Notes: generated by a model from the sequence alone, not told the origin. A stretch of DNA of 51,512 nt from Prorocentrum cordatum (GCA_963575745.1 CAUYUJ010000026.1:620001-671512), one strand, 5' to 3'. Shown: positions 2,600 through 51,512, numbered from the stretch's first letter. Made by a program: numbers and translations.

Positions 2600-3655
2600 C
2601 AGTAGCAGGAGGGGCGAGCAGAAGGCCAGAGACCTCTTGGATGCACGGGGGCTTCGGGGGCTTCCTTGGAGGCCTCTTGGGCCGTCTTGGATGCCTCTTG
2701 CCGGTCTCGGGGGCCCCTTGGGCCCCTTTGCGGCGTCTTGGGTGCCGTTGAAGGGAGCCTCTTGAGGCTTACTGGGCTCTTTGGGCCGTTTAGGCACCTC
2801 TTGGGGGCCTCTTGGGGGCTTCTTGGGGCTCTTTCACACTCCCTGGAGGCCCTCTCGAGGCTATCTGATAGGACATCGATCAAAGAAGAGGGAGGTCCTT
2901 ACTTAGCGGCGCCCCTTCTAGAGCCTCTAAAATCGCCCTTAGGGCCTTCTTGGAGCGCTCTTGGAACGCTCTTAAGCGCTCTTGGGGCAGTCCTGGGGCC
3001 CTTTGGGGCCTCTGTTGGTGCTCGCGGGCCATCTTGGAGCCATTTTGAGGCTTCGGAAGGCCAGCCGAAGCGAAAAGGCGAGAACGCACAAACCATGAAT
3101 TTCCATTCTGGGTTTTGGAAGGACTTTGACCTCTTGTGGGCTCCCTTGGGGGTGCTCCGAGGCCACTTGGAGCCGCCTTGAGGCGGTCTTGGAGCCTCTA
3201 GGAGCATCTTGGAAGCCATCTTGAGCAATATTGATCAGGAGGGAAAAAACACAGACACAATGAATCGTCGACTCCCAGGAAATACAGGAAAATACAGGAA
3301 GTGGGGGGGAGGACGAAAATCCAGAAAATATGAAAAAAAAAAAAAAAAAAAAAAAAATGGGGAATCCTGTTATTCGTGTCTATTTATTTGTGTGTCCCAG
3401 GGCCCCTTCAATTGAAACATCTTGAGCTGTCTTGGAGGCCATCTTGGGCTCTCTGTGGCCCTCTTTGAGCCATCATGTGCAATTCTGGACGCTCCAAACG
3501 GCCGCGGGGCGCCCCGTCCAGGTCCGGGGGGGTAGCGGGAGGGGTAGCCCCCTCCCTGAAGGGGAAGAAGGGAACATAGACGAGAACACGTCCTAAACCA
3601 CTCACGCCCAGAGGGCTGGTGGGATGTCGGGCATGCGGGCTCCCGCCCATTTTTA
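2600..3655. repeat. CCAAGA/TCTTGG-rich dispersed repeat copies (reverse orientation) interrupting the LINE
   Basis: Dense ggcc(g/a)tcttgg / gcctcttgg motifs, the reverse complement of the gcccaaga-rich repeats at 17.6-24.4 kb and in the same orientation as the copy at 29.6-29.9 kb. It lies between the LINE endonuclease and RT parts. Confidence 0.6.
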
Positions 3656-3659
3656 TGGG

Positions 3660-6170
3660 AGACTTCAATTCTGTGGAGCTGATTGAAGGACGCCTTCACA
3701 TGGCCGGAGCGCTTACGCTCCCCTCCAACACGTTGTGCTCCTCCTTCCAGTCATAGCTCCTCGCGCTCGCGGAGGTGGAGCAGGTGCAGAGCACTCCCAG
3801 GGCCACGCGCGACGCACGCCGCGGGAAGACGGCGGTGCCCGGCTTCTGTGGGAGACCCCACACGTCGGCTTGATCGCCCAGACACCTCCCTGTCCACGGT
3901 CGAGCTGCTCAACCTTTGCCCGCGATCTTGCGGTACTGGATCGCCCGCTGATCTCAGCAAGCCTCTTGACCATGTCCCCGGTTTCCTGGGCCTCCGGCGG
4001 AGCTCTCGACCCAGGCGGCCCATCCTCCGCAGGTGGATCACGTCGGGTCCTCACTTTGCCACGCACGTCCAAGAGCTCATGGACGGCGCTGGGCCCTTTA
4101 GCGCAGACCCTTTCAGCGCCATTGATGACAGCCGCGATTGTCTCCGCGCGGCCGCCAGGAATCTGAAGGCAGACACAGAGCGGACTGGTGCCCGTTCTGT
4201 TGGGGAAGAGGTCTCATGGTGCTTGGTTGCCCCCCGCGCCTCGCACACGGTCCGATCCCGAGGCTTTCCGCCACCACCTGAACCAGCTCAAGATCACCGA
4301 ATTAGATGACTGCATCATCACCCTCGGAGCCGATGAGCAACTACTTGACCACATCAAGCAATCCAAGGATAACCATCTGGAAGGTAACACAGTGACCCGC
4401 ACTCCCTGTCAGACACGGTCCCTCACCCTGTCGAACACCGCGCAAAAACATAAAATGGTGGCCACATGTAAGCCGCTGGTTGCGGTCTGCGAGCAGGCTT
4501 GAGTTAGCAACCAACGAGGATTGATTAGGAACCTTTCATTGTTCAACAACATGTATGACATCGAGGCTAAGGCCATCCATTGCATCTGCCAGTGCAACTA
4601 CAAGCGCACTGGCATTCTCCTCTACGACCTTCAGACGGCTTTCCCCAGCCTCCTCCACCACGCGTTCTTGTGGGTCCTCTCGGAGACTCAGGCGCCCTCA
4701 TTCGCGATTGGTGCCCCCAGGATCCTTTACAACGAAGCATGGGTTGAGGTCTGTTTCTACGGGTGCGAAGGCGGCTGGTTCCTTTGTGCTCGGGCGTTAA
4801 GCAAGGATGCTCTGGCTCTGGTCGCCTCTTTGCATTGGCCCTCGATCCGATGAGTCGGTTTTAATTTCGCGTGTTTACCTTTCTGCCTTGAACATTTTGG
4901 GCTGCTTCGCCGGCAATGTTGCCAACGCCACAGGCGACCTCCCTGAGTCGTTCGCTATCTCGTTTCGGTTTTTGGCAGCTTGCTGAGCGCTCTCACGGAA
5001 CAGCCCTTTACACAACTATTATGGTTATATTCGACGACGGTTGCTCCGAAGAGCAGTTCTGGGCTCATCTGGCCATTTGGGGGTTCGCGAAGTTTGCAGG
5101 CCAAGTGGGATCGTCTGAGCGTTTCCAGGGTGGTATTGGACCCCAGGGTGCTGAGGCAACGTGAAAGGCTCCCACCACCAAGTTTGTCATGCGGGCTCGC
5201 TTGACGAGGTCTCTGGACCTCTGCACGGCCAAGACCAGAGCCCAGTATAACGAGATGACATGTCTATTTCTTTTTTTGTGACAGTGTTGCATGGCCCCGA
5301 AGTGCACGATAGCGGCGGAACGGGAAACTGTCATGTCTTTGGTTCGTGGCCACTGGAACTCCATGCCCGCCTCGATGATTCAAGGCCTGATGGTCTTGTA
5401 CTTCCCTGTTGGAAACATGTGATGTACAAGACTTCTGCCTTGCAGCTAGTGCACTTCGATGCCGCGTTATCCCTTCTTGGGAGTTTTGGGGGCGTGGGCC
5501 AACTGGATCCCAATGACGACCGTGTTGTCAGATGGTTTGGCCCTCGGCGGTGGCAGACATGCTTGATTAAGCAGTCTTGGGACAGTTGCTGTACGAAGGT
5601 AATCCCGGCTAGACCCGACTGGGCCTTCCAGCTTCAACGCCATGTTGGTTAGCAAACGTCATGGCCAAGTCTTCGACGGATGCCTTCAGGTCTTGCCGAG
5701 GCGCCTGCGCAAGTACAGGCTTGTCTTGGTCGCATGCCGCGTGGGCTCCTCCCCCGTCTGACCGGCTTGCCCCCCTCCTCTCTGCCTGCTTCCTCTAGTT
5801 CCATCTCTTGGTGCATTGCATGGTGCACGAGTGCTCGGTTTCGCATGCCCACGAGAGCGTTCATCGCATGCGGCTGTGATTCGACGCTTCACATGCCCGA
5901 TTGCCCTGTGTTCGATGGCCGTAGGCTTGCCCTTTCCCTGCTCCCTTCCTCCTCCTCCAGGGCTGGTAGGGTTTCTCGTCTCTGCCTCTGGGAACCCGCC
6001 CGCCGTTCGAACGAAGCCCTGATTCCCTGTGCCTTGTACATTGGCTTTGCTTTGAGCGCTCACCACAAGTTGCGTGCGGTAAGCCCCACTCGCAGCCTGA
6101 TCCTGGCCGCTGCTACCGCCAGAGGGCAACAGCTTCCTAGACGAAATGACCAGCTCAGTGTCGTAAGGGG
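3660..6170 (+). mobile_element. Degenerate non-LTR (LINE) retrotransposon: RT domain plus C-terminal Cys/His region
   Basis: Frameshifted fragments read TRSLTLSNTAQK (~4410), NQRGLIRN...NNMYDIE and LLYDLQTAFPSLLH (ORF 4521), GVKQGCSGSGRLFALALDP (from 4793), FAGN in place of YADD (~4905) and WCTSARF..CGCDSTLH..CP (ORF 5680). There are multiple stops and frameshifts. Confidence 0.8.
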
Positions 6171-34320: not shown

Positions 34321-35068
34321 TTTGCGAGCAGAAGTGGGCAGGAAGTCTGAGGCGAAACGCCCTGCCCGCGCTGCCGACACACGTCTGGGGGTGCGTCAGG
34401 GAGGAGCCATTTAGAAGAAGAAGAAGAAGACGAATGATAAGCAGAAAAAGAAGAAGGAGGAGGAGGAGCAGGGACGGAGGAACAGGAGGTGGGAAGGGCG
34501 AGGAGGAATGTTTTGGAACGTTTTGATAAGCACAACGTGCAGAGGAAGGGGGGAAGAGGGCGGAGAGAAGAAAGCAGCACCCGCGGTGGTTGCCAAACAA
34601 ATGGCAACCACCCCCCGGCCCTTCGACCCCTCCTCAAGGAGGGTGGCGAGTGGTCGCCAAAGGTGGCGGGGTGGTTGCTGCCGAGAGCCCTCCTCCCGCA
34701 CGCTGTGCCAACGCGGCGCGACGAGGACCTCCACTGGCACTGCTGGCGCCGCAACCGCGAAGCGGGGACGCAGGAGGAGGACGAAGCACAGCAGGGGGAG
34801 CAGGCCCAGACCCCCGACGTCATGAGCTTGTCATGGCGCGACCCTCAGAGGTCTGGACCTATTCGCCGGGACCGGTTTTTCGCCCCGAGCCGTTTTTTGA
34901 CTGTCCCGAGGGCCGGGTAAGGGCCCCCGGAGGCCGAAAACATAGAAAAACCTCCCGTCGTGATTTTTTCATGACTCGAGGGGGTCTGGGGGCGCAGGAG
35001 GAAGAGACGGGGAGCAGCAGCTCGGGGGCCCGTGCCGGCAGCCCCTCTGCTTGGATGGCCGCGGCGGT

Positions 35069-35296
35069 TGCTAAGTACTTAACATACTTACTACGGTAAG
35101 TTAAGTACTTAGTAAGTAGTTAGCGGACTTAGCTAAGTACTTACCCAGTCATTACTAAGTGGCCCACTTAGTAATGATTTAGTAAGTACTTAGCTATCCA
35201 CTTATAACCAGTTAGCTAAGTGCTTAGCGCACTTAGCTAACCACTTATAACCGCTTATAGCTAGTTTGCTAAGTAGGTTATAAGTGACTTAGCGGT
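35069..35296. repeat. AT-rich array of TAAGTACTTA-like palindromic motifs (candidate subterminal repeats)
   Basis: ctaagtacttaa, ttaagtacttag, gctaagtacttac, gtaagtacttagc, gctaagtgcttagc and many half-sites in ~230 bp, immediately before the palindrome-rich gene block. Confidence 0.75.
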
Positions 35297-35951
35297 TACA
35301 TTGCACTTGTTATCCAAGGGCCATGCACAGGGAAAAAAGGTAAATCCACGCCTTGAAAGAGCTGAGTTTGTTCGTTGAGCGCTGCAGCGCTACAATTTTT
35401 GCATTTTGATTTGGAGTCGGTGTCCTGGATTTTTGCTTTAAATATGAGAGGCGCTGCAGCGCTGCCTTCGGATTTATATGAACATGAAGCGCTGCGTGCG
35501 CTGAATATGAAGCGCTGCAGCGCTGAATGTTGAGTTAAATGCATGTTTTCTAGTTGCACGTTGTTCGGATCTTCATTTTCGCCCAGCTCCGTTTGCAAGG
35601 AATTTGAATGCACATGTCAATTATGTTTTGTTGTATTCGTTGTTTTTCAATGGTCGCATTGAGCGCTGCAGCGCTCCAAATTTGATAGCACGTATGTTAC
35701 TTTGCGCTGCAGCGCAAAAAAATGGTTGTCGTCGTGATGTCGCATCGCGCTGCAGCGCGTGCGCGCTCGTGCTTCATGGGCCTCGGGCTGCAGCCCAGAT
35801 CAACATTTTTGCTCGCAAGTTGCATGTCCATGCAAGTCGATGTTCACGCGCACGCCGCGCGACAGCTTGTCTCAAGCTGCGGCCGCGCGCCGCATCCGCC
35901 GTCGCGCCCGCGGGCTCGCACGTTGCATTCGGCGCTATATATAGCGCTGGC

Positions 35952-38861
35952 ATGGCGCTGCAGGCGCGTCAGGAGGAGCAGATCTTGCAGTACATCGAGG
36001 AAAGCAATTCCTCGGGGAGGTTGGCATCGGGGTGGGATCAACTGAAGGAGTTCCTGCTGGCGGAGGGGCTAGCGTATTACCAGCAGGTCCCACCGAACCA
36101 GATGGGCATCGACATTCGGAACCGCAGCGGTTCGTTAGTGAACCCTGCGCGGGCTCACAATTTAGGCGCGAAGATTTGCGCCCAGGGCTTCGTCTTGGCC
36201 AAGACGGCTGCAGCCACTGCCTTCGAGGCCCCGCAGGGGGCGCAGTTGGAAGAGACCGCGATGGCGAACGACCGCCTTTCGCGGCTCAGCGGGGGTCGGT
36301 GCCCCCCGCTGGACTCATTGCGGTATACGTCAGTGGGCGGCTCCCACACGAACGTCTTCCTCCGCTGCGTGCTGGCCAAGGCGCCGACCACAGTGAAGGC
36401 GCTGGCAGACTCTCGGGGCAACATCGACTCCGAAAAGCTGTGCGCGTTGCATCCGCAACTTGCGACGGCAGTCAAAAAGGGCCTGACGTGGTTGATCATC
36501 AAGCACGCGGTGGCCAAAGTGAAGGGCCTCAAGAACTTCGTGCAGAGGGCTTTGAACGCCGACGTCAGGGAGGCGGTTCACGAGACCGAGATCATTCGGT
36601 CAGGCTGCAGCCTATCCCCACTATAGTATATAGCGGTATGTAGTAAGGACCAGGATGATGCACGAGGAGGGTGATGAGTGGGAGCGCGTTGGGGAGGAGG
36701 TGAGAACGAGGAGCAGGAGCATTATATCTTACAGTGCTGCAGCACTTGATCGGCTCGGCGCTTGCTGCAGGCAGGTGGGCGGATGCTCTTGGCACACAGC
36801 CTCGCTGAGGGTTCCAGCAAGCCCGACTGGCGCGACATCGCCGAGCAAGCGGGCCACGCGAACCCACCTTGCAAGGCGTGGATCGCTGACTTGTGCAAGT
36901 TTGTTGAGCTCGGGCCACAAAACGGAGAACTTCTCCGTGAAATAGATGAAGCCCTCAAGACCTTCACGAATGTGGACGTCTCGGGGCAAACTTTGATGTG
37001 CGGCTCTGAATTTTGGCGCAAGTTGAATTCGATTAAATGGGGGAAGCACCAGGAGTCGTACCCGCATGTCGTAGCGGCGCTCGTGAAGGCCAACTATTCA
37101 GGCGAGCACGTGGTGGATAGCATGTGCAGGACCATCCATAAGCTTGTCGGCGCCCCCTTGTAGTGACATGCGCTGCAGCGCATCTATGCATTGCGCTGCA
37201 TTGTTAGAACTGCGTGCCCACCCCTCCCCCCTCCCCCCACACACACACACGCACCGTTACATTGCTTTATTCCCAAACGCAATCGCTGAAGCGATGTGCG
37301 GATCAAGGCAAACGAGATCGTCCACGTCGCGTCCCGCAAGGCGGACGTGGCTGCGGCCGACAATCTCATGGCCGACGCAAGGTCGCTCGTGAAGAGGTTG
37401 GATATCGGAGCGGAGCAGGGCTTCTTGCACATCACAAAGTTGGATGTCCGCTGTGCCATGTACCTGGTGAAGAAGCGAGCGCCAGGAGACCGCACTTTCG
37501 GATGCGTAGCAGATATAGCACAGGTATCTTCTCACGCCACCTTTCGTGTGCTCCTTGTTTCCCCCCCTCCCTGCTTTTCGCCATTCAATGTCGCTGCAGC
37601 GACCCTCCAGAGAGGTCTTCCTCCATGAGCTCGGGGAGCCAGCCCAGCTGCAGATGAAGAGCTTGGGGATCGAGTTCGGCAAGGCGGTGCAGACCGACAA
37701 GCAAGGCGATGGCGCGCCCGAGTTCCCAGCGAGCGCCGATGCAGACGCGCCGCGCGCGGCAGCGTCGTCGGCCGCTGAGTTGAAGAGCAACGTCTTCCGC
37801 ATGCGGCGTGCAGGGTTCGACGTGGGGAAGCACATCGTCCAGAAGAAGGAGGTGGATGACGTCTTCGAGGTGCTCTCCATCTCGGAGAATGGGATCACCG
37901 CTCAGAAGAAGTTGCACGGCGACCTGGTGGGCGAAGAGATCTCCATTGCGTGGCTGCAGCCACCCCGCCGCCCGTGCAGGGAGCAGGGAGGGGGGAGGAG
38001 GAGGTAGTAACTGCGATATTGTATTTCCTGTACTTAAGTTGCAATGGGTTGGTCGATGCGCTGCAGCGCACGGAGCAGTTAGCCGAGCGGGCGGATTGAA
38101 GTAAACATATTGCTCGAGAATTACAAGTTGACGTCCAGGGTGCAGGAGCAGTTGCCGTTCACGAAGGAGCACTTGCCGCCAGCCCACGAGGGTTGGGCGA
38201 TGGACGCGTTCAAGGGGGCATGCAACATGGCGCTGCGGCTCCAAGCGCTGAAGTACCAGGCGAACATTTTGCACTTGGAGATCCTGCAGGACCCACCTGC
38301 CGTGCGCTGCAAGCGAGCGTTCAAAGTGGGTGAGCTCGTCAGACTTGTGCTTCCGCAATCGTCCGCGCCCCCCTCCGACGACGCCGCGCTGCAGCGCTGC
38401 GCTGGGCACGAGGTAGCGAGGATTTCGGGGCACGTCAGGCCGTAGCGACGAGGTCAGTGACGTTACCGACTGCGCGCCATGTAGCTCCACGCGGTGGGAG
38501 TGGTCGCATTTCAGCCTCGTCCACGCGGGTCAGCACGGGCTGCGTTGCGGAGAGCATCTCGTTGGGGAAGGTTGGCCTCTACGAGTTCTTCGTGGGCCCG
38601 CAGTTCGCAGGGCCCCCCGCTGAGGGGTCGCGGGGCCCCGACGCCTTTGTCAGCCCCTTCTGGGTGGTGGCAAAGTCCGACTCAGAGCCCAACATGGAGC
38701 TCCGAAAGGAGACCGTGACGTTCGGGACAGGCGTCAACAAGGTGCAGGTGGGGGTGCCCCAGATGCATAACACTTGCGCCCTGTCCGCGGGCGACTTCCT
38801 GGTGGTGAAGCCGTGGCCGCGGCTGCAGCCGCGGCCAGCCAAGAAGCTCAGGGCGGCCTGA
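35952..38861 (+). CDS. Six-exon gene (~710 aa): ParB/Srx-like N-terminus, SET-like C-terminus (both tentative)
   Basis: Exons approx. 35952-36593, 36783-37133, 37302-37523, 37615-37944, 38095-~38340 and ~38508-38861, joining ORFs 35604, 36762, 37296, 37546, 38110 and 38457. Motifs: RNRSG..V....HNL...I..QGF, VGGSHTNVFLR, VRCKRAFKVGEL and PQMHNTCALSAGDFLVV. The last junction is ambiguous. Confidence 0.7.
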
Positions 38862-39358
38862 GCTGGCGATATAGAGGGACCACGCGGGAGGATGAGGCAG
38901 GAGGGAGGGGTGATGCGGAGGAGGAGGAGGAGGAGGCAGGGTAAGGTTTGGCATAGGGAGGAGGATGAGGGGGCTTAAGGAGCGGCGAGCGCACATGACG
39001 GCACCGAGCGTGGCCCTCCGATTGGTGTAAACAGTGTGCGGGTTGGTGCGAAGTGCGATACTTGCCGCGGCGCTGCAGCGCGCGGAACGATTCGTTGCGC
39101 CAGCATCGTCGCTGCAGCGACTGTACAATATTGGTGCTGACATCAGCCTTTCCCACAGACATGCCGCTGCAGCGGCTTCGTCATCACTGTTGTGCTCGAT
39201 GTGATCGTTGCTCTTCGCTTCATCTTTCACATGCGCTGCAGCGCACCTCATCATGAGCACCTCGTCCGCGCACATGTTGCCTCATCACTCCATCGCAGCA
39301 ATTTTGGCGCTGAAGTGCGACCGCGCTCGGGCTGCAGCCTCGGCGCGCCGCGCGCGCG

Positions 39359-40122
39359 ATGACGACGATCAAGCGCGACTGCGTCGTGCTGCACGACAAC
39401 CGTACGGGGCGCGAGCTGGTCGCGGCCGTCGAGGTCATCGGAGACCGCGAGTGTATCACCGTGACCACCGCAGGTTGGAGCAAGTGGGTGTGCGGCAAGG
39501 CTCAGGGCTTGCGAGGCACGATGTTCCTAACGTGGCTGAAAAATCAGCGCACCGCGTCGTCGGGGCCAACGGCGCCGACGACGCTCTTCGCTGCAGCGGA
39601 GCCAGGCCGCCGCCCGACCACGCGGTCCGGCCGCGCCAGTCGCCAGGTTCCAGTGGACAAGTGCTTCAAGACAGTGCAGCTGCCGCCGTTTGGCGATACT
39701 GAGGCAACAGAGCTGCAGATTGTCATTCCCCCACCTCATAGGGGGGGAGGGACAAGCTGCAGGTGGTGCTGCACGAGAAGGGCGTAGAGTACATCAAGGC
39801 CAAATTGCTTCAGGAGGCGGCGGAGGCGGCAGAGGCGAGCACGGTGCTGAAGCGCCCGCGGCGCCACGAGACCGACGTTCCTTGCGGCGCCCGCATCTAT
39901 TGGGTGCAGCGGCTCCAAGCTTGGCGGGCCGTCCGCACAGACTGCGGTTGCAGCAGGACGGCCTTGTTCCGCACAAACCGCGGCTGCAGCAAGGATGCCG
40001 CTGAAGCGGCCGCGGCGAAGTGGTGCACCGCCGAACTCAAGGATTGCGAAGCGGATGAGCTCCAGGAGATGGAAGCGGAGGCGGAGGGCGATGCGGAGGA
40101 GGAGGAGGCCGACTCGGACTGA
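39359..40122 (+). CDS. Hypothetical protein with AP2-like C-terminal domain; frameshift at G7 run 39741-39747
   Basis: ORF 39359 continues in the frame of ORF 39763 (DKLQVVLHEKGVEYIK...). IYWVQRLQAWRA.....RTALFRT......AAEAAAAKW resembles the AP2 beta-beta-beta-alpha pattern, followed by an acidic tail. Confidence 0.55.
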
Positions 40123-40631
40123 GCTGCGGCGCGCTCGGTCGACCGCATCGCTGGGGCGTGCGATCACGGTCGGCAGTGCGATTGAGAATGGCAGCGAGGA
40201 GGACGAGCACGAGGACGAGGGCGAGGAGGAGAAGGAAGAGGAGGATTGGGATAATAATTGCGGATTGTTGGTGGATCCCCCAATGTTCGCTACTGTTGGT
40301 GTCATTGCGAATCGTTGGTATGATCAAGCGTGCTGCAGCACGACGACACTACGATCAAGTGTGCCTCTCACGCGTTGCCGCCGTCGATGTGTGACCTCAC
40401 GGCGCTGCAGCGCTGACTTACGTTTCGTGTGTTTGGAGTCCATCGTGCTGCAGCGCTGATTTACGTTCGGGTGTCTGGCGTGCCGATATCAGATTTTTGC
40501 GTCGCGCTGCAGCGCTGACTTACATTTTGTGTGTCTGGCGTGTTGATGTAGCGCTTCGATCGCGCTTGCAGCCCGCATGTTCGCTTTATGTTATTGCATG
40601 TGGTTCGCAGCCACTTGTGATCAGAACATCA

Positions 40632-40985
40632 ATGGCTGCCAACATGAGTGCAGCGACGCCGCCATGGCGGCTTCCCTCGGAGCCAGTGCCGCCGCCGAAG
40701 GCGAAGTCCGCTGCATCGGATGCGACATATGCGGCTACTCCCCCTCCTCCGCCGCCGCCGCCGCCACCACCGCCTCCGACGTCGACGAGGACCGCGGCTG
40801 CAGCCGCCAGTGATGTGCCAGCCCCGCGCGCGGCTGCAGCCGCGCGCAAGCGCGATGCTGATACCAAGGTTGGCATGTGGAAGCTTGTGTGCGACATGAT
40901 TCGGGAAGCGCTTCAGCGCGGGGACCGCGAGGCAGCGTTTGCGCTGGCAGTCCAATACCACGTCGCGAAGAAGCCGCGGAAGTGA
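40632..40985 (+). CDS. Small Pro-rich hypothetical protein with C-terminal helical motif
   Basis: ATG 40632 within ORF 40497; ends GMWKLVCDMIREALQRGDREAAFALAVQYHVAKKPRK. Confidence 0.55.
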   Translation: MAANMSAATPPWRLPSEPVPPPKAKSAASDATYAATPPPPPPPPPPPPPTSTRTAAAAASDVPAPRAAAAARKRDADTKVGMWKLVCDMIREALQRGDREAAFALAVQYHVAKKPRK

Positions 40986-42073
40986 CGGGCGCGCGGCGCG
41001 CGCGCGGTCAGTGCTGCAGCACCACTGTTTCAGTCGGATACAGCATCGCGACGGCGGCGACGGCGACAGAGACAACGACGACGGCGTTAAAGACGACGTA
41101 ATTCAGAGCAGTGCATGCAGGAGAAGAAGGTGGAGGGAGGATGATGATGAGGAGGAGGAGGGTGATCAGGAGGACGACGACATTGAGGACGACGTTCTGG
41201 AACGCCCTCATTTTCACAGGTTCCCACCGCTCGCTGCCAGCACCTCGGAGCAGGGGAAGGGGGAGCAGGATGATGATGATGAGGAGGAGGAGGAGGAGGA
41301 GAAGGAGGCCGAGGACGAGGAGTATGACGAGGAGGAGGAGGAGGAAGACAACCAGTTGGCACCCATGCCCCGCCCCCCCGATCCTTCTGCCTATTCCTGC
41401 CTCCGCATACTCCCTCTCCTCCTCCTCCTCCTCCTCCTCATCCTCCTCCTCCTCCTCCTCATCCTCCCTCTCATTCTCCTACTCCTCCTTCTCCTCCTCC
41501 TTCTCCTCCTCCTCCCTCTCCTTCTTCTCCTCCTCATCAGCGTCCTCCTCCTCCTCCTCCTCCTTCTCCTGCCCCCCCCTCCTCCCCCCCCTCCTCCTCT
41601 CCCTCCAATCCTCCTCCTCCCCCTCATCCTCCTCCCCCTCCTCCTCCTATCCTGAGGGGGCAGCCCTGGGGAGGTCAATCCAGTCGTTGGCCTTCGGAGG
41701 TTCAGTTGGGGGTGATGTTACTTTGCGGGGTGATGTCACTTTGGGGGGTCAGTCGATTGGTTAGCAGGGGTCCGTCGTCGTCAGCGTCGTCGTCATCGTA
41801 TTCGTCGTTGGCACCGCCGCTGTTTTTGTTCCGTGCAGCTGCAGCTGCAGCTTCGTGCGCTGCAGCGCCCGCGCGCCGCCCTGCGGCGCCCACGCGCCCG
41901 AGCTCAGCTTCAGCTGCAGTGATGGGACTGGTTTCCACCACCACTATACCATATGTTGGAGAAGGAGGAGGAGGAGAAAGAAGAGGAGGAGGAGGACCTC
42001 TCCCTCCAACTTATGGTACTGGTGGTGAAAACCAAGCCCATCATGCAGCTTGGCGAGCTGCAGCCTCGCTGCG

Positions 42074-42685
42074 ATGGCGTACCTCGACTACGACGAGGAC
42101 TTCGAGGAGTTCGAGGCCGCGGCCACGGCGGGGCCGCGGCCTCCCTCGGCGCCGCCGCCAGGCGCGCTGCTGGCCAAGGCGCGGCCGCGACCGTCGCCGT
42201 ACGGCAGCGTCGGCCGCGCCTTGGCCAAGGGCACGGGCAAGGACAAGGACAAGGACAAAGACAAGGACGGCGGCCCACCTTGCGCCTCGGGCAAGGGCAA
42301 TGACAAGGACAAGGACGTCGGCGGCCCACCTTGCCAGGGCATGGGCAAGGGCAAGGACAAGGACAAGGACGTCGGCGGCCCACCTTGCAAGGGCAAGGGC
42401 AAGGACAAGGACAAGGACGACGGCGGCCCTTGCAAGGGCAAGGGCAAGGACAAGAGCAAGGGCGGCAAACTTGCCCAAGGGCAAGGGCAAGGGCAAGGGC
42501 GGCGGGGCGGCTGGTTCAACAGGGCGCAGCGGCTCTGCGAGCTGCTGCTGGCGGGCGAGTACGCCGCCGCCGCCGCCCTGGCCGAGGAGTACTACGCGGG
42601 CCCAGCAGAGGTCTGGGTCGGCCAGGGCGGCGGCGGCGGCGAGGAGGCCGCCGAGGAGGCGCTGCAGGCGCCGTGGGGCGCCTGA
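42074..42685 (+). CDS. KG/KD-repeat hypothetical protein with C-terminal motif shared with 40632-40985
   Basis: ATG 42074 within ORF 42050; GKGKDKDKD.GGPPC repeats, then GGWFNRAQRLCELLLAGEYAAAAALAEEY. Confidence 0.6.
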   Translation: MAYLDYDEDFEEFEAAATAGPRPPSAPPPGALLAKARPRPSPYGSVGRALAKGTGKDKDKDKDKDGGPPCASGKGNDKDKDVGGPPCQGMGKGKDKDKDVGGPPCKGKGKDKDKDDGGPCKGKGKDKSKGGKLAQGQGQGQGRRGGWFNRAQRLCELLLAGEYAAAAALAEEYYAGPAEVWVGQGGGGGEEAAEEALQAPWGA

Positions 42686-43922
42686 GGAGGCGCAGGCGCC
42701 GAGGAGGGCGCCGAGGGCTGCGCGCAGGCGCTGCAGGCGCCGAGGGCTGCGCGCGGGCGCTGCAGGCGCCGAGGGCTGCGCGCGGCGCCTCCCTCAGGCG
42801 CCTGGCGCTGCAGGCGCGGGCGGCGCCTCCCTCAGGCGCCTGGCGCTGCAGGCGCGGGCGCCAACATGAGAGCCGCGGCAGGCCGGGCCGCCGCGGAGCA
42901 TCCAACTGTCTGGGCGACGGAGAGGGTGGACTATAGTAGAGGTAGAGGTAGACAGGGGGAGAGGGTGGACTATAGTAGAGGTAGACAGGGGGGAGACGTA
43001 ATATACATAGGGAATGCGAGGGGGACGATGGAGACGCAGCGTGGGGGTGGAGTGAAGACACATTGGAGAGAGACGGTAGACAGGATGCCCGCTGCAGCGG
43101 GTATCCACTCTCCCGTGAGCGAGGGGGACAACGAACGCATAGTGATAGGATACATGCTGTAGCAACCCAACATGTAAGATCAATGGGAGCAATGGGGGGG
43201 GTGGATTGGATCAGTTCGCGAGCATAGCCTGCCGACGCATGCATGTGTTTTAGGCCAGGTTATATTTCGTGCGCCAGATCGCGTGGTGCGCCCGCGCTGT
43301 CGCCCAGAAAGGCGCTCCGATATCCTCATCACATCTATCTGCCATCGTCGACGTTCACATCCTGATCCGCTGACATTTTTTTGTATGGACTGATGTGCCA
43401 GGGGTCGGCCTTGGATTGGCCAGGAAAGTTTGGGGGCACTTGGGGGGGTCCTGGGGCACTTCAGATGGCAAACAGTCTCGCATCGCATCGCCCTTCGCCA
43501 CTCTCCCTGCTCCCCTTCAGCACAGTTCGTTGCGCCGCCGAGTAGCTCCCCCCATGGCCTCCTGGCAGCCTCACCAGCTCCCATCAGCCTTGTCCTCAGC
43601 AGTCTCGAGCCATCGCGACGCTGCTGCAGCAGAGCCGTGAGCGTAAATCTTTGCAGTTGACAGCGGTGTCGGCATCGTCAACCTCGTCGCGACGCTGCTG
43701 CAGCAGCGCCGCGTGATGTACTTCGCGCATCTCTTAGTTTCACTCCCACCTCGAAATCAGCAGTGTGGACAGTGGTCTGGGACTGCGTGGGTGGGCGTTG
43801 GGGTGGGCTGGAGTGCTGGATGTTGGCTTCAGGATGGCTGATATGAGGTCGAACGGGAGCTTCGGGTGAAGCGATCTGAGAGCGTCGGTGTCCCTCTGCA
43901 GGGGTGATGCTGTCTGACAGCG

Positions 43923-44073
43923 GCGTGTCTGTTCAATAGCCCCCTCTATTGAACAGCCACGCCCGTGTCTGTTCAATAGCCCCCTCTATTGAACATGCCA
44001 TGTTCAATAGCCCCCTCTATTGAACAGCCACGCCCGTGTCTGTTCAATAGCCCCCTCTATTGAACAGACACGC
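43923..44073. repeat. Four tandem identical hairpins TGTTCAATAG-CCCCCT-CTATTGAACA
   Basis: Copies at 43930-43955, 43970-43995, 44001-44026 and 44041-44066. The block is bounded by a 17-bp inverted repeat gcgtgtctgttcaatag / ctattgaacagacacgc. Confidence 0.95.
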
Positions 44074-44894
44074 TTCTGTCGATGTCCCAGCTGCCTTCGA
44101 GGCTCCCAGATCGCTTCGGTATTTGCTCCTGATCACACTTCGCGCATCTCCTGAATCCGCCCCGCGCCCTCCTCGGACACCTTCCGTGTCCCTCCTGTGT
44201 CTGCCCGCCCGCCCGCTCCCGAGCTCCCGTGTATACCTATCCGTCTCCCGTGTCTCTCCCGCGTCTCTCCCGTGCCCCTTCCGTGTCTCCACATGCCTTC
44301 CGTGCGCTCCCGCCCGTGTCCCTCCGCACCGCTTCCGCGTCCGTCCGCCCGCTCGCCCCCGAACTCCCGTGCCCCTCCCGTGTCTCTTCCGTGCCCCCCC
44401 CCGTGTTTCTCCCATGTCCCTCCCACCCCTCCGTGTCTTTCGCACCGTCCCTTCCGTGTTCCTCAAATGATCATGCATCCCCCCCCCGCGTCCTGCCCGC
44501 CCGCCCGCCCGCGCTCGTGTCCTTCCCTCCCGTGTCTCCTCGCATCTCCCCCCGCCCCCCCCCCCCCCCTCGTGTCCCTCATTATCTCCCTCCTCTCCTT
44601 TCCATCACTCTATATCTCTCTCCCTATTGCCCACTACCATGCGTTCCATCATGGTGCGCATGCATAGCGCTGCAGCGCTTCATGTTACTTTGTGACGATG
44701 ATTTCTGCTGAGCGCTGCAGCGCTCACGTGTGTTCCTTAATTGCATGCGATCGTTGCGCTGCAGCGCATCTGTACTGTTGTGGCCTCTCTTCCACCTCAG
44801 CAGCCGAGTGCTTCAGCTCTCGCAGTGTGGGAGGCCCTCCCTCGCGCTTCCCCTCGGAGCGTCCGCGCACCCCCTCGCCCTCGCGGAGGGCATC

Positions 44895-46756
44895 ATGTCT
44901 GCCGCGGCTGCGGCCACACCCATCAACCACATCCTGGATAACCTGGACAGCTGCGACGCCTTCTTCGCATCGCAGATCGGCGTCATCGCCGCCGACGCGA
45001 TGGCGCAGAGCCAGTCCGCCTTGTCCATGAGCGTGCAGCTGCAGCTTCACAACTTGGGGACGATCGGGGCTGCCCAAGCAGCTACCCTGCAGAATCGAAT
45101 CACCGCGTCGGGCTTCGCGGACAGCCATAAGGCGCGCCTCAGCGCCGTGCTGGCCGCGCGCGTGGGCACGGCGACGCCCACGCTCCAGATGCGCGTGCAG
45201 ACGCTCGCGTCAGGGCGGTGCTATCCATCGTGCTGTGCACATCGGACCGCCGAAGTGTTATTCACATGTATGGTTTAATTGTTTGTTCTGTACTTTATGT
45301 ATGTTACCATGTTCATTTTTCAAATGTACTTATGTTAGCATGCTGCAGCATGCCTGCGTCGATTCGTAGGCTGGTGGGCTTTACCATGCAGGACTGGGGT
45401 TTATTTCGCGACCCCAGCCAGAGCATCGTCGCGAAGGTGCGCGCGTTGATCAAACGTTGCGGTGCCATCGGCTTGACGGTTCCGAGCGAGAACACGCTGA
45501 AAGAGTTGGCGGCGTTGATGGCATGCGCCCATCTTCCAGACGCAAACCCTGGGCAGCTCTACGGGATCGTGACGGAGATGAAGGTTTGGGATTCGGCGGG
45601 AACGCCTAACGCAGACGCATCATATCGCACTGACTGCAGCCAATGCGATGCGGCGCGTCAGCGTTAGGGTTTCCCGACGAGTCGCCCTTTACAGGGTCAG
45701 TTCTTGGCGAGCCGCAGGGGCGCGACGGGGCAAGCGGCGACAGTGACTTGGAATTTCCCAGCAGATCCTCGGCAGCTCCCTCAGCACATCTTCGACGCGG
45801 CGTACACCGATGCGGACCCGCCGATCGATGTGACGCGCGACCTCGCCAACGTGGTATCGCATCTACGAGGCTGCTGCCACCCCGTCATGCGCTGCAGCGC
45901 TGATTGTTCTGGATGTCTTGGGTGCTTCGGTGAGCTCGGTCCTTTAGGTCCACCTCGCATAGAGCATGATAGGTTTCATGCTACGCGTGCGCCGCTGAAG
46001 CGGCCTGCGGGTCTCAACGCCATCAAGGCTCGCGTGCCTCTCAGGCTGACCAACAAGGGCTTGCGGGCTGCCGCCCCACCGCATCAGCCGAGCACTGCCA
46101 TTGTGCCATGGACACCATCGGGGTCACCCTCCGTGCCGCCTGCAGCGCCAATGCAACCCATGGACGCGATGGCCGTGATGCAGCAAATGCTGGCAGCGTT
46201 TGCGCCACCGCCATCGCCGCCCAACGAGCTGCAGCTGCAGCTCTTCCCGCGCCGCCCTGCGGCGCCCACGGCGAGCCCCCCCGCGAGTCCCCCCGCGATT
46301 GGTGATTCGCCAGCTGGGCCAGCATTGTCAGCGGCGGCGCCAGATGCTGCTGCAGCAGCGCCAACGCCGCCAAACGAAGATGCTGCTGCAGCAGCAGACG
46401 GAGACGAGGATGCTGTGCTGCAGGCGATCGAGACCTTGGCTGCGGGCAGCGCGAAAGGCGAGCTGCCTCGCAAGGGCAAGGGCAAGGGCAAGGGCAAGAA
46501 GGGCAAGGGCAAGAGCGCGATCAAGGGCAAGAGCAAGACAGGCGCTGGCAAGGGCAAGACGGCGGCCAAGGGCACGGCCAAACCGAAGGCCAAGGGCAAA
46601 GGGAAGGCCAAAGCCAAGGCCAAGGCCAAGCCCAAGGGCAAGGCGGCAGCCAAACGGGGCCAAATGGCACTCGGGTGCAGCAAATGCCGCTACCTGCCGA
46701 ATGGCTGCGGCACGTGCCGCGACCCGAACTTCACTGGCCGTCGCGGCAAGCCGTGA
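44895..46756 (+). CDS. Multi-exon hypothetical protein with Lys/Ala-rich basic tail and terminal CxxC-x6-CxxC motif
   Basis: Exons approx. 44895-45214 (GC-AG intron 45215-45369), 45370-45583 (GT-AG intron 45584-45694), 45695-~45840, a probable in-frame intron to ~46003/46010, then to the stop at 46756. Ends KGKAKAKAKAKPKGK...LGCSKCRYLPNGCGTCRDP. Confidence 0.7.
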
Positions 46757-47497
46757 GCGCGCAACGGGCACTGTCGGCATATGGAGGTGAGGATGAGGAT
46801 TATGAGGGCGAGGAGGAGGATGGGTAGGATGATGAGGAGGATGAGCATGTGGAGGAGAAGGAATGAGGAGGATGGTGAGGATTAGTGCGAGGTTGGATGG
46901 AACGCTGGCCGATGATATGAACGGTAGTGGCGATGGTCTTGCCTGGCGGTCGCGCGGCTCGCACGGACGACGAGGAGGATGAAAGTCAAATATGTTGACG
47001 GGTTCTCTTGGGTGCGGGCGCTGCAGCGCTGGCGCCTTTGTGGTCAACGTTTACATCGCCATCATCATCACGATGCAGCGCTGCAGCGCTCGCTTTCCTG
47101 GATGGTGGCGTAGATATTGCGCGCTGTTGTGTTCCCATGCAGCGCTGCAGCGCCTGTCAGACTTGTGGTGCCGTTGTAGCGTTGGCGCGTTTGTGAGCGT
47201 GCAGTTGCAGCCGCGGTGTCCATGTATTGCGTGACGTGCTCGTATTGAGTGCCAGTCGTTCCTCGTCGATACGCGCTGCAGCGCCATCATTCGTGATGTC
47301 GAGCGTTGTCTCCCGCATGGTTGTTGCCAAGTCACGCGCTGCAGCGCTGTGATTCGCTCATGTTGCGCGTTGCCGATGGCATGCCCTCCTCCCCCTTCCT
47401 CCTCCTCCTCCTCACTTGGCTCGCGCGTCGCAGTCGCCATCGTTCGCTGCAGCGGGTGCTGGCAACGGACCTCCTCCGCCTCCTCACTGGGCTCGCA

Positions 47498-47928
47498 ATG
47501 GCGGCGCGCCGCTGCGACAAGCCGTTCGAAGCGCAAGCGCGCGCCGACCGTCGCGACGAGTTGCGCGAGGCCCGCGCGAGAGCGACGGCGACTGCTACAG
47601 CAGAGGTGAAGGAGGCGCGGAAGAACGCCAGGAAAGCGGAGAAGCAGGTGCAGATCCGCACCGCGGAGCTGCAGGTGGATGAGGAGGCGGATGAGAAGGA
47701 GGACGGTGGGGTTCATGAGTGCGGCAGGCTACTCCCCCGCTGCAGCGGGGGAGAAGGACGACAGGGGGGATGATCAGGAGGAGGTGGAAGGCGATGATGT
47801 GGGAGGATGAGGAGTATGAGTAGCAGGGTCGGGGTCAGATGGACATCGCCGCTTCGGACGTGGCCAACCAGAAACTCAACGAGGCGTTGACCTCGCTGCG
47901 GAACGCCAAGAAGATGAAGGTGACCTGA
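47498..47928 (+). CDS. Small two-exon basic coiled-coil-like protein
   Basis: 47498-47674 (MAARRCDKPFEAQ...AELQ), GT-AG intron 47675-47838, then 47839-47928 (MDIAASDVANQKLNEALTSLRNAKKMKVT*). Confidence 0.5.
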
Positions 47929-48605
47929 GTGAGGTCGGCCTCGGCGACCGCCTGCTGAAGCATGCTGGTTCGATTGATTGGTAAAGGCTGGAGGGAACGT
48001 GGTTGAGCGTGTTGTTTGAGTTGCGCTGCAGCGCTTCTCCGTGGACCACGGTTGAAAGTTTGCGCGCGGATCATGATGTGTTAATGTGTTGCGCTGCAGC
48101 GCAGTTTCGCTTGCAGTTTCTCGTTGGATGGTGATGTGGCGGATGATGAGGGCGAGTGATATTGATGCTGTTGACGATGAAGGTGATGGTGACGGGGGGA
48201 TGAAGGGACGGGAGACGGATGATGAGGAGGATGGGTAGGTTGAGGAGGAGGATGGGGAGGATGAGGGGGCGCATGAGGCGGAGGAGGAGGAGGAGGAGGA
48301 AGAGGAGGAGGAGGAGGTATAGGAGGGGGAGGAAGAGGAGGAGGACGAGGGGGATGGCGAGCAGGATGGAGGAGGAGGAGGACGTTCGCGCTGCAGCGCG
48401 TCAGATTGTCATCATTGAACGTTAGCGGCGCTGTAGCGCCATGTGCTCCCAGACTGTTGCTTGGCAGTTAGCGCTGCAGCGCGCATTTGGTTGCTCTCCA
48501 CGCGGTGCAGCCTCATTTCCATCCGTAGTCGCCGTGGCCCCTAGCGGAGGGGCCCCTCCGCGCGCGCGCAGCGACGGAGGCAAGCTTGCCTCGGGAACGC
48601 GCGCG

Positions 48606-49116
48606 ATGGCGGCAGAGGACGACCGCCCAGCGAAGCTGCGGCGGCTGTCCCGCCTTCGCGCGGAACTGCCATTCATGCATTGTAATGCGATGGCGCAATT
48701 CCTGGCGTCCGTTAAGCGAGACGGAACCCCCGAATTGGGATCCCGACGCCAGGATATCAGAGACGCTCGGGAGCTCATGGTCGGTGAGAACACGCCGTAC
48801 GGCAAGCTCCACCAGAACATGGTAGTCGGGCAGCACACGGTGGAGATCTGCAGTCCAGCAGCAATGCTGTGGTATTGCAGCGCCCTCCCCGCGATGCAGC
48901 CTCTGTGGCAGCGGGCGCTGGAGCTGCCACGCCCGTGGCACATCATCATTTACGGCGATGAAATAGGCGCTGGCAACGCGCTGGCGCACGTGCAGAACCG
49001 CAAGTCGTGGGGCATCTACTGGACGATCGCGGAATTCGGCCCGCAGGCGCTTTCGTCGGAGGACTTTCGCGATAGCGTTGCTGCAGCAACGATATATGCG
49101 GGGGGGGGGAGGGGGG

Positions 49117-49164
<48 letters not shown>

Positions 49165-51048
49165 CTGCAGCGCCAGTTGTGCTGCGATTTGTTCGCAGGA
49201 TGCGTGGTTCCAGCTCGCGACGATGCGGGCCAAGACCGCGAACGACATCCAGCCGCACGGACTGACGATGCTACTGGACGCAATCCTCGCGCAGTTCTGG
49301 CCTGATCAGGGGCGCAACTTCAGCGCAGGCATCAGCTTGCGGCTGCGCCCCGACGGCGCGACGGAGCTCATCCAGATGGACCTCGGAATTTACATTCAGC
49401 CGCTGCAGCGGTCGCCGCATAGCACCCAAGATTAGTTAGCATACATGTGCACATGTATATATCCATTACGCCTTCTTGCGTCGCTGCAGCGGCTCTGTCG
49501 GATCGCGGACGAGGATGCAATACACCGCTTGATCGGAATGAAAGGTTCGTCAGGAATCAAACCATGTTTTATGTGCCGCAACGTGTTCTTGAAGGGCGAA
49601 GTTCGGGATATAGTTGCTTCTGATGCGACGGGTGTCGCTGTTCACCACTCGGAACCAGATGCGTCGCGGCTGCAGCCGATGACGGCGCCGTTGCTCGATG
49701 CCATCTGCAACAGATTGATCGAAGGGGTCAACATCATGAACAAGGGCGAGTTCCAGGAGTTGGAGCGCCGACTTGGCTGGAACTGGGACCCCCATTTGCC
49801 TGAGCGGGTTCGGAAACTCAAGCCGCTCGAGACAGTCATGTTTGATTGGATGCATTGTATTTTCGTCAACGGTACATATAACATTCTGGTGTTCCAAATG
49901 TTTCGAAGGTTGAAGGGTTACTGGGCGCGCGCAGACGCATATTTCCAGGACTGGTCGTTTCCAGGGTGCCACTCCATCTCCCCCGACACGCACGCGATCT
50001 TCGGCGAGAAGCGCGCGAGGTCCCACGTTGACAGCAAGCATTTCAAGTGTACCGCCAGCGAGGGGCTCACAACCATGCAAGTATCATTGCATGCTTCGCG
50101 CCCCCGCCAGACCAATAATACATGCGCTGCAGCGCACGTGAATTTCTGTAGGATATGTACTGCACCCCTCTTGTTCGGACATGCGTTCGCGCGGGCGGAT
50201 TGACGTGTTTCTTCAGGGAGGTGGCTAGCGACGCTGCAGCGCCTGCAGTCCGATCTGCTTGCGCAGTGTTCGAGGCGCACACGATCGTTGTGGAAGAAAT
50301 CCTACGAGTATCCAGGCGTCAGGCAGACGCGGATAAGCTGCAGGCTGCGGTTAACATGTTTTTGTTGTCATACAGCAGCGTCTTTGGCAAGGAAACGATG
50401 GCGCAGAAGTTCCATTACCTGCACCACTTCGCCAACTACGTGAGGCGTTGGGGCCATGTGGCGCTGCCGTCGTGCTGGGTTTTGGAGCGCAAGCACAAGA
50501 CCAGCAAGCGCTTTGCGAACGCTCTTCAGGTGGGGGCTGCAGCCTCCAGCGGCTGGGACGCCAATGTCCTGAAGAGCGTCACCGAGCGGCACCTGTGGCA
50601 GCTCATGGATGGCGGCACCTTTAAGGTTAACTGCCTGGTTAACGCCACCAGGCCGTCCAAGGCCATCTCGCGCGAACTGCTGCAGCAGTTCGGGCCTGCG
50701 GACTTTGTTACGTCCGCTGCAGCGCGGCGCCGCTACCACGACGTCAAATACGGCGACGTCGTGCTGTTGGAGGACGGAGGAGGGGAACACATTGCGGCCG
50801 AGGTGTTGAAACACCTCTCCTTCACCAAGAACGGCCACTACTATGGCTTGAGCTTGGTCCTGCCCTACTTCTTCAAGGAGAAGCTGCACCCGCGCGCCTC
50901 CGCGCACGTGCTTGGCGGCGATGCCGACGCCTTTTGGGCGCACACGGCGAGCATCGTGCGCTCGCTCGCGTGGGCGCCGCGCGAGGGCGGCGGCATCCGA
51001 GCGGCGCGCCCGATATGGTCGCAGCCGCGGTGGTGCGCTTTAGCCTAA
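48606..51048 (+). CDS. CACTA/CMC-EnSpm-like DDE transposase, four exons, ~693 aa, apparently intact
   Basis: Exons 48606-49061, 49199-49393, 49502-50082 and 50199-51048 (2082 nt, in frame). Motifs in the order known from EnSpm-type transposases: IYGDEIGAGNAL, IADEDAIH, KPCFMC, FDWMH, KFHYLHH, CWVLERKHK. Confidence 0.8.
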
Positions 51049-51441
51049 AACGTGGATTCCTTACTGGCGCTGCAGCGCACTTTTTTACATTGCTAAATGC
51101 TTCGGTGCTGCAGCACCTGAACGTTGCATGGTCGACGACTCCTCTTCTCCGCCTTGAAAACGTGGATTCCTTCTGCATGGCGCTGTAGCGCACCTTTTTC
51201 ATTGACACTTCGGTGCTGCAGCACCTGAACAGTGCATGGTCGCCGATTCCTCTCCTCCGCCTCGTTCCTCCTCCTCCTCTTGCGCTGCAGCGCTAATGTC
51301 GTTGATCAGTGGTGCGGTCGTTCAAACTCCTCCTTCCCCGCGTCCTCCCCCTTCTCCCCCTCCTCCTCCTGCTCCTACTGCTGCTCCTCCTCCTCATCTT
51401 GCTCCCCCTCCCCCTTCTCCTCTCCCCCCCCCTCCTCTGAC

Positions 51442-51443
<2 letters not shown>

Positions 51444-51512
<69 letters not shown>
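51444..51512. other. Terminal poly-G run (probable contig-end/sequencing artefact)
   Basis: Unbroken G to the end of the window. Confidence 0.7.

Follow-up and report, generated by a model that had tools for sequence, protein, structure and literature searches.

Candidate AT…GG introns in two genes of a multi-copy element from a Prorocentrum cordatum-like dinoflagellate

Two interrupted genes and the junctions of int4 and int5

The DNA analyzed here is a stretch of 51,512 nucleotides (nt) from the dinoflagellate Prorocentrum cordatum (GCA_963575745.1 CAUYUJ010000026.1:620001-671512). The whole stretch is called the window, and coordinates are counted from its first letter. Two of its genes, which we call gene A and gene T, are interrupted by five segments (int1 to int5) that start with AT, end with GG and are followed by an exon that again starts with AT. 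These candidate introns are the subject of this report. The features are as follows; a slash marks a boundary between exon (lower case) and intron (upper case), and protein lengths are in amino acids (aa).

35952-38858, forward strand: gene A, which holds int1 to int3; its product putatively ParB-like; at least 14 annotated P. cordatum paralogues
36594-36782, forward strand: int1 (gene A), 189 nt, gagatc/ATTCGG…GTGGGCGG/atgctc, boundary repeat AT
37134-37301, forward strand: int2 (gene A), 168 nt, aggacc/ATCCAT…GATGTGCGG/atcaag, boundary repeat ATC
37945-38094, forward strand: int3 (gene A), 150 nt, atctcc/ATTGCG…GAGCGGGCGG/attgaa, boundary repeat ATTG; 3′ end GCGGGCGG/AT
48606-51048, forward strand: gene T, which holds int4 and int5; exons 48606-49061, 49199-49393, 49502-50082 and 50199-51048; 693 aa, no internal stop
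49062-49198, forward strand: control intron of gene T, GA–AG, 137 nt, boundary repeat AGGA; an ordinary dinoflagellate intron
49394-49501, forward strand: int4 (gene T), 108 nt, atttac/ATTCAG…CTCTGTCGG/atcgcg, boundary repeat AT
50083-50198, forward strand: int5 (gene T), 116 nt, phase 2, gcaagt/ATCATT…GCGCGGGCGG/attgac, boundary repeat AT
35381-51291, no strand: zone of GCTGCAGC palindromes, 72 copies against 2.3 expected, none before 35381

An earlier note on this DNA, made from the sequence alone, had described the five segments as AT…CGG/AT and as removable in frame. Sequence and spliced translations agree on both points, and the peptides given for the joined exons (ETEIMLLAH, MCRTIKANE, EISIEVNILL, LGIYIADEDA and TTMQVLTCFF) were all recovered. 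The 13-mer GCGGGCGGATTGA, singled out in the same note, has exactly two occurrences in the window, at 38087 and 50191, which are the 3′ junctions of int3 and int5; its sole further match at two or fewer mismatches lies on the opposite strand. The last 12 nt of the AT…GG segments are rich in G, with a fraction of 0.42-0.67, whereas the median for 13 canonical controls is 0.25. Additional GCGG/AT sites at 40051, 40260, 47687, 48066, 48139 and 50329 were rejected as further introns; they sit in coding or low-complexity sequence.

Gene T provides the stronger test of these boundaries. When its exon 3 was searched against 1.8 billion representative proteins, 1036 matches were obtained at E <= 0.001, most of which align from the first residue of the exon. 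Ten homologues that were checked lie on contigs of 1.1-7.5 kb from ENA, Logan, JGI or NCBI; one example is a 691-aa protein encoded on a 3.4-kb contig. Because such long proteins fit such short contigs in the ten cases checked, we take the homologues to be contiguous open reading frames (ORFs), not splice predictions. Pfam has no family for gene T or for 25 of its homologues. An AlphaFold model of one homologue (P0017) has a predicted local distance difference test score of 94.4, and a Foldseek comparison of this model with the PDB gave 45 matches at E <= 0.001. RAG1 came first (E 1.5e-9, template modelling score 0.44-0.56), and ProtoRAG (7.4e-5) and Transib (1.2e-4) were also matched. Searches of the ESM Atlas with the gene T family led in the same direction, to Plavaka, Transposase_21 and RAG1 clusters. 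The resemblance of the predicted fold to the RAG1, ProtoRAG and Transib cores bears out the earlier call of a transposase and suggests, at fold level, that gene T encodes a RAG1/Transib-like enzyme. The family (P0011-P0153) is a large RAG1-like transposase family that has no Pfam model and is abundant in dinoflagellate-type metagenome contigs.

Spliced at int4 and int5, the product of gene T aligns without a gap at LGIY/IADE and TMQV/LTCFF to 45 homologues (23-47% identity) that are uninterrupted there, so that an alignment check proposed in the earlier note came out in favor of both junctions. We also scanned the junctions with a hidden Markov model (HMM) based on 79 homologues, each 450 aa or longer; all donor and acceptor pairs within ±36 nt were scored, and the dinucleotides were left unconstrained. 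Segments 49394-49501 and 50083-50198 rank first, tied only with shifts that leave the protein unchanged. Two of these shifts arise from the AT repeat at each intron and one is a synonymous shift (CA…TC) at int4, which leaves up to 3 nt of ambiguity in the register there. Within ±15 nt of int4 or int5, no same-length G[TCA]…AG pair occurs. When any length was allowed within ±60 nt, the best canonical junction scored 102.7 bits against 112.5 bits at int4 (9.8 worse) and 75.3 against 85.4 bits at int5 (10.1 worse). The G at +1 and the 3′ AG that mark standard dinoflagellate introns are found in neither. Taken together, the alignments indicate that int4 and int5 have to be removed exactly at the junctions listed above.

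The scan does find canonical sites where they are present, because it recovered both the GA–AG pair of the control intron and canonical pairs at most breaks in relatives. In 80 related metagenome loci there are 26 alignment breaks, 20 of them at the position of the first intron (49062-49198), and at 19 of these 20 a G[TCA]…AG/G pair is in the best group or no more than 0.4 bit from it. A GC–AG reading of the first intron, ending at 49195, was replaced by the GA–AG pair 49062-49198, which ranks first in the scan and also among the canonical options.

The segments could instead be ordinary introns that are spliced at nearby GT/GC/GA–AG sites, in which case the proteins would differ by a few residues. 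The earlier note had cautioned that several junctions have canonical alternatives; options of this kind that are in frame and free of stops exist at every intron (40, 27, 70, 18 and 33 for int1 to int5 within the search range); some are length-neutral for int1 to int3, and the CTGCAG within the palindromes resembles a good acceptor. NCBI models for P. cordatum (P0001-P0004 and P0170-P0183, mapped on genes A and T) use sites of this kind. These models, however, disagree at all five junctions: near-identical paralogue models choose three, three and four different canonical junctions at int1, int2 and int3, and conserved residues such as the first 32 of exon 3, or LTCFFRE, are dropped. We attribute the inconsistency and the lost residues to the assumption of GT/GC/GA–AG introns in annotation pipelines. 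According to the available part of its description, the P. cordatum genome pipeline accepted only GT, GC and GA donors and AG acceptors (PMC10666404). At int4 and int5, the canonical options, besides their lower scores, lose or swap residues conserved in the family (IADE…CK; PV/LA.F). No canonical solution is common to the window and its metagenomic orthologue (locus L001, below), whereas AT…GG/AT is. We regard splicing at ordinary sites as unlikely. The UniRef name 'RNA-directed RNA polymerase', which some of the P. cordatum models bear, found no support in this analysis.

Relatives, selection and the removal of the segments

The protein identity of L001 to gene T is 72% across exon 3 and 58% across the longest match. 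Its int4 (2898-3000, 103 nt) and int5 (3592-3707, 116 nt, as in the window) are both AT…GG/AT and both top the scan, with the best canonical option 5.7 bits worse at int4 and 12.2 bits worse at int5. Conservation in another copy, which the earlier note had put forward as a check, is thus seen for the AT start and the GG/AT end of both introns. The 3′ end is CGG/AT in the five window introns and in L001 int5, and AGG/AT in L001 int4; AT…GG termini are found in 7/7 introns across the window and L001.

Between the exons of the window and L001, the nonsynonymous rate (dN) is 0.28 and the synonymous rate (dS) is 1.46, and the resulting dN/dS of 0.19 over 655 codons indicates that gene T stayed functional with the introns in place. 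When the introns themselves are aligned, conservation is seen in the first ~20-25 nt, in the last ~10-20 nt and in the palindromes but not in the interiors; the ends of int4 and int5 are conserved above the synonymous rate. Since the introns predate the split of the window and L001, and purifying selection has acted since, we reason that the segments must be removed, and removed exactly. Exact removal under purifying selection would in turn rule out simple disabling insertions.

More distant relatives extend the picture. At the int4 site, L002 (44% identity) carries an intron of 260 nt, for which AT…CGG/GT scores within 0.7 bit of the top and which has no boundary repeat; its int5 site starts with AT, and the contig stops ~20 codons past the junction. 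In seven further relatives (P0006-P0010, P0023 and P0037) the ORF departs from homology at, or no more than 2 residues from, the V/I codon of int5. What follows there is S, F, C, C, C, Y or S, all with T-initial codons (S also AGY), as an AT intron start predicts. We infer that the int5 site is present in L002 and in these seven proteins, down to ~40% identity. Junction 5 is read straight through in 56/63 covering loci and junction 4 in 74/76 (L001 and L002 being counted as intron-bearing). As most relatives do not have int4 or int5, the two introns appear to have been gained in one sub-clade. A 39%-identity relative (L011 3847-4195 and L012 3773-4121) has a 349-nt non-canonical intron at another site, with two GCTGCAGC-type palindromes near its ends and a (GAT)n-rich interior. 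The same gene of this relative also contains a 63-nt GC–AG intron whose two boundaries repeat the same 13 nt (4425-4496).

These comparisons bear on a second explanation, in which the segments are small palindromic non-autonomous insertions with an AT target duplication that disable their copies and are never removed. Boundary repeats of 2-4 nt do look like target-site duplications, and the palindromes resemble the ends of transposable elements of the miniature inverted-repeat or foldback kind. Moreover, the segments are absent from most relatives, no transcript was found and L001 carries a frameshift. Against this, the insertions are older than the split of the window and L001, yet the exons show the low dN/dS given above despite the high dS, and the intron ends changed less than synonymous sites. 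The window copy retains its intact 693-aa frame, L002 still has the int4 site and L001 has both sites, and the int5 site appears to be present in L002 and the seven proteins. We give little credence to disabling insertions.

Another possibility, raised in the earlier note, is that the segments are excised from DNA before or during expression, in the manner of the internal eliminated sequences of ciliates or of a self-excising transposon. In three DNA runs (X1, X2 and X7), contigs run through the introns and none of the joints listed leaves out any of the five, although contigs can hide rare forms. DNA-level excision is thus left without support, and dinoflagellates are not known to separate germline and soma. 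We consider it highly improbable.

Several other mechanisms were tried and rejected. IRE1/XBP1-like cutting at CUG/CAG in the paired palindromes, worked by hand, gives a stop at int1 and a frameshift at int3, and at int4 would add nine residues that the homologues lack. For bulge-helix-bulge splicing of the tRNA-endonuclease type, the flanking exons were judged by eye not to be complementary. Adenosine-to-inosine editing could turn AU into a GU-like donor, but the 3′ GG cannot become AG. Programmed translational bypass, as in T4 gene 60 and mitochondrial byp, depends on a short gap flanked by take-off and landing codons that match. In the window, int5 interrupts a codon (phase 2); at int4 the gap follows TAC, and translation would resume after CGG. 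The gaps are 108-189 nt long.

Palindromes, gene A and the favored reading

The GCTGCAGC palindromes are lengthened to 8-24 nt by flanks that vary from copy to copy yet remain complementary. They occur in every intron examined, in exons too, and are dense in the 5′ non-coding region (35381-35794, seven copies). Two copies are found in int1, two in int3 (107 nt apart) and two in int4 (4 nt from its 5′ end and 7 nt from its 3′ end), whereas int2 and int5 have a single central copy. In gene T, five palindromes lie within 361 nt of intron and five within 2082 nt of exon. In L001, the orthologous introns, the GA–AG intron among them, carry palindromes at conserved positions. In int4, pairing of the two palindromes over 13 nt closes the ends of the intron (z -4.6, and z -2.2 for the L001 orthologue); in both, 2-4 and 6-7 bases are left unpaired at the ends. 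A role for hairpins in AT…GG introns is only partly supported. The palindromes are possibly binding sites for the transposase or an accessory protein, or splicing hairpins. The two palindromes of the control intron 49062-49198 are kept in L001, whereas its long (GA)n microsatellite and its G-run have no counterpart there.

Gene A offers less to compare. Protein searches, viral-contig scans and the ESM Atlas gave no homologues of it outside P. cordatum, and Pfam gave no family. The ends of int1 to int3 match those of int4 and int5, including the 13-mer common to int3 and int5, and this favors a common class. Also in favor, position 37297 of int2 is G in runs X1 and X2, with the result that the end reads GGGCGG/AT, and the paralogue models disagree at int1 to int3 just as they do at int4 and int5. 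Some contigs of runs X1 and X2 have a 2-nt deletion at 37977, in int3. Another intron, near 37524-37614, has many canonical solutions. On balance, we lean toward placing int1 to int3 in the same AT…GG class. Of the AT…GG/AT intron type proposed in the earlier note, the part that concerns int4 and int5 held, since this is the sole solution that fits both the homologues and the orthologue. The membership of int1 to int3 did not reach that standing, as the searches gave no distant homologues and each of the three has a canonical alternative of the same length.

The reading that we favor, and consider probable on comparative grounds, is that the segments are genuine introns of a multi-copy DNA transposon, cut precisely from the transcript at non-canonical boundaries. 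With disabling insertions ruled out by the argument from selection, and DNA excision without support, RNA splicing at such boundaries would be what remains. Each intron would start with AU(Y) and end in a G-rich …(C/A)GG, and the next exon would usually start with AU; because of this AU boundary repeat, the cut could be placed in two or three equivalent registers. We propose that int4 and int5 were gained in one sub-clade, most likely through the insertion of short, introner-like segments that carried palindromes and duplicated a 2-nt AT target, and that selection has since kept their exact removal. Hairpins centered on GCUGCAGC would lie within every such intron and, in int4, would pair both intron ends. 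Removal would occur at the RNA level, by a spliceosome that accepts A at +1 and a 3′ GG and is possibly aided by the hairpins.

Several observations weigh against reading the five segments as AT…GG introns. None of the listed runs that carry the stretch is on record as RNA, and the one guessed to be RNA (X21) matches low-complexity parts only; the protein collection searched contained no spliced full-length product of at least 495 aa. The register is weakly fixed by the HMM within ±3 nt, with same-length shifts that differ by 0.6-5 bits. Exon 3 of L001 has a 1-nt frameshift, and this copy may itself be dead or misassembled. The 349-nt intron of L011 and L012 reads AT…TC/AT or AT…TG/AC. Because it ends in TC or TG and not GG, the GG end is common but not universal, while the AT start recurs. 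Folding is better than that of shuffles only for int4 and int2 (z >= -0.3 for int1, int3 and int5), and pairing of the intron termini, the C-rich 5′ tract with the G-rich 3′ end, is no better than in shuffles. When the five introns were compared within the window and the 80 loci, the only common sequence was the 14-18 nt palindrome cores and the 3′ motif, and there was no repeated family of the kind that introners would form. Two further points concern int1 to int3. Each has a same-length GA–AG or GT–AG alternative (for int1, GA 36582–AG 36770). In addition, 5/18 canonical introns have an in-frame, stop-free AT…GG/AT solution within ±45 nt, so that the AT…GG/AT rule by itself is weak evidence for an individual intron. 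For int4 and int5, it is the independent evidence from homology and from the orthologue that lifts them above chance.

With regard to the element as a whole, the last exon of gene T, used as a protein query, recovered four NCBI proteins of Prorocentrum cordatum (82-97% identity) from four separate contigs; at least 7 paralogues of gene T are annotated. These paralogues agree with the dinoflagellate origin that had been proposed from the sequence. The stretch, or a close relative of it, is present in DNA runs from three organisms and in several marine metagenomes. Together, the paralogues on several contigs and the occurrence in DNA runs and metagenomes indicate, as far as sequence can tell, that the window is a multi-copy element of a P. 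cordatum-like dinoflagellate. Across 35300-51512, word depth is ~130-280 in most bins of a 547-million-letter run and ~30-100 and 3-10 in two larger runs (runs X1, X2 and X7 were examined), with low-complexity bins far higher; such depth implies either a high copy number per genome or an enriched source.

Other parts of the window were also described. An AT-rich block at 35060-35300, in which motifs of the types ACTTAG, TAAGTA and CTTATAAC are reiterated in both orientations, adjoins the palindrome zone upstream and is probably the element's left-end region of subterminal repeats. A cluster of imperfect inverted repeats at 41247-41590 (~100 nt each, 72-77% complementary) is probably low-complexity sequence within the element. 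Pfam has no family for 35 ORFs of the element or for the 26 longest ORFs of 1-35000. In this latter region, GC content ranges from 0.51 to 0.71 and there are strongly skewed stretches, with a GC skew of 0.51 at 24-26 kb.

Comparison with described introns

The earlier note had not recognized the class as a described one. A literature search for such introns in core dinoflagellates returned only genome papers on Amoebophrya and dinoflagellates and general introner surveys; no report from a core dinoflagellate was found, and to that extent the claim stands. It gives way with regard to Amoebophrya A25 and A120, for which the accessible sections of the genome paper report similar introns: more than 60% of introns are non-canonical, with 3-5 nt direct repeats over the boundaries and inverted repeats of 8-20 nt that form hairpins (PMC7789003). 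In the part available, a 2024 review of dinoflagellate genomics gives boundaries beyond GT/GC/GA–AG only for Amoebophrya (PMC11453091).

As far as the Amoebophrya account extends, the likeness is considerable. Both sets of introns have no single standard terminal pair, a short direct repeat over the boundaries that makes the register ambiguous, internal palindromes or inverted repeats able to bring the ends together by a hairpin, lengths of ~100-250 nt and a suspected origin by transposon-like insertion. Non-GT–AG termini at independently fixed junctions, the mark of the Amoebophrya type, are found in int4 and int5, where homology and the orthologue fix the junctions. There are also differences. 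The introns described here come from a free-living core dinoflagellate whose other introns are normal (GT/GC/GA–AG), including one in gene T itself, and AT…GG recurs here, in contrast to the broad scatter of termini described for Amoebophrya. The boundary repeat is 2-4 nt, compared with 3-5 nt there, and L002 int4 has none. End-pairing inverted repeats occur in only some of the present introns, which are known from comparative sequence and gave no multi-copy family within the window and the 80 loci. Compared with standard dinoflagellate introns (GT/GC/GA–AG, with AG/G…AG/G repeats, in the portion of the review available; PMC11453091), the window introns are similarly short, have a repeated boundary and lie in the same genes. 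They differ in having A rather than G at +1, GG rather than AG at the end, and a 3′ region that is G-rich rather than pyrimidine-rich.

Three other groups were compared. U12-type AT–AC introns have a 5′ ATATCCTT box and a terminal AC. The window introns share the AT start, but their 5′ ends (ATTCGG, ATCCAT, ATTGCG, ATTCAG and ATCATT) are without ATATCCTT and they end in GG rather than AC; a U12-type identity was rejected on both counts. Euglenid nonconventional introns have variable non-GT–AG borders and a secondary structure that is proposed to juxtapose the ends. They belong to another lineage, and a stable end-closing helix is seen here only in int4 and its orthologue. Introners are said to be intron-generating transposons, in work by Huff in 2016 and Roy in 2023. 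As described in the available text for Micromonas, Aureococcus and Polarella, they resemble the window introns in sub-clade-limited gain, in boundary repeats compatible with duplication and in palindromic content; they differ in that the described introners splice canonically and form recognizable multi-copy families (PMC12130899), neither of which was seen for the window introns. The annotation of P. cordatum, in the part of the paper at hand, reports 'introner elements' with inverted and direct repeats in 2.4% of GT/GC/GA–AG introns (PMC10666404). Earlier work cited in the available part of the Amoebophrya paper describes other alveolates as being without a minor spliceosome (PMC7789003).

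The assumption of GT/GC/GA–AG introns used for dinoflagellate annotation provides no means of cutting int4 and int5, which lie in a gene under selection. If the AT…GG junctions hold in RNA, non-canonical splicing would reach a free-living core dinoflagellate, and the defined terminal motif could be searched for genome-wide. The recent gain of such introns, with intron-less relatives at hand, would then make it possible to study how introns become spliceable. We put forward more tentatively, as a possibility that we ourselves think doubtful, that Prorocentrum and related core dinoflagellates have, throughout their genomes, a second class of introns, of the AU…GG type with GCUGCAGC hairpins and a 2-nt boundary repeat, which are spliced efficiently without G at +1 or a 3′ AG. 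Were this true, all current annotation pipelines would miss such introns, many dinoflagellate gene models would be systematically wrong, and non-canonical splicing would be no peculiarity of the parasitic Amoebophrya.

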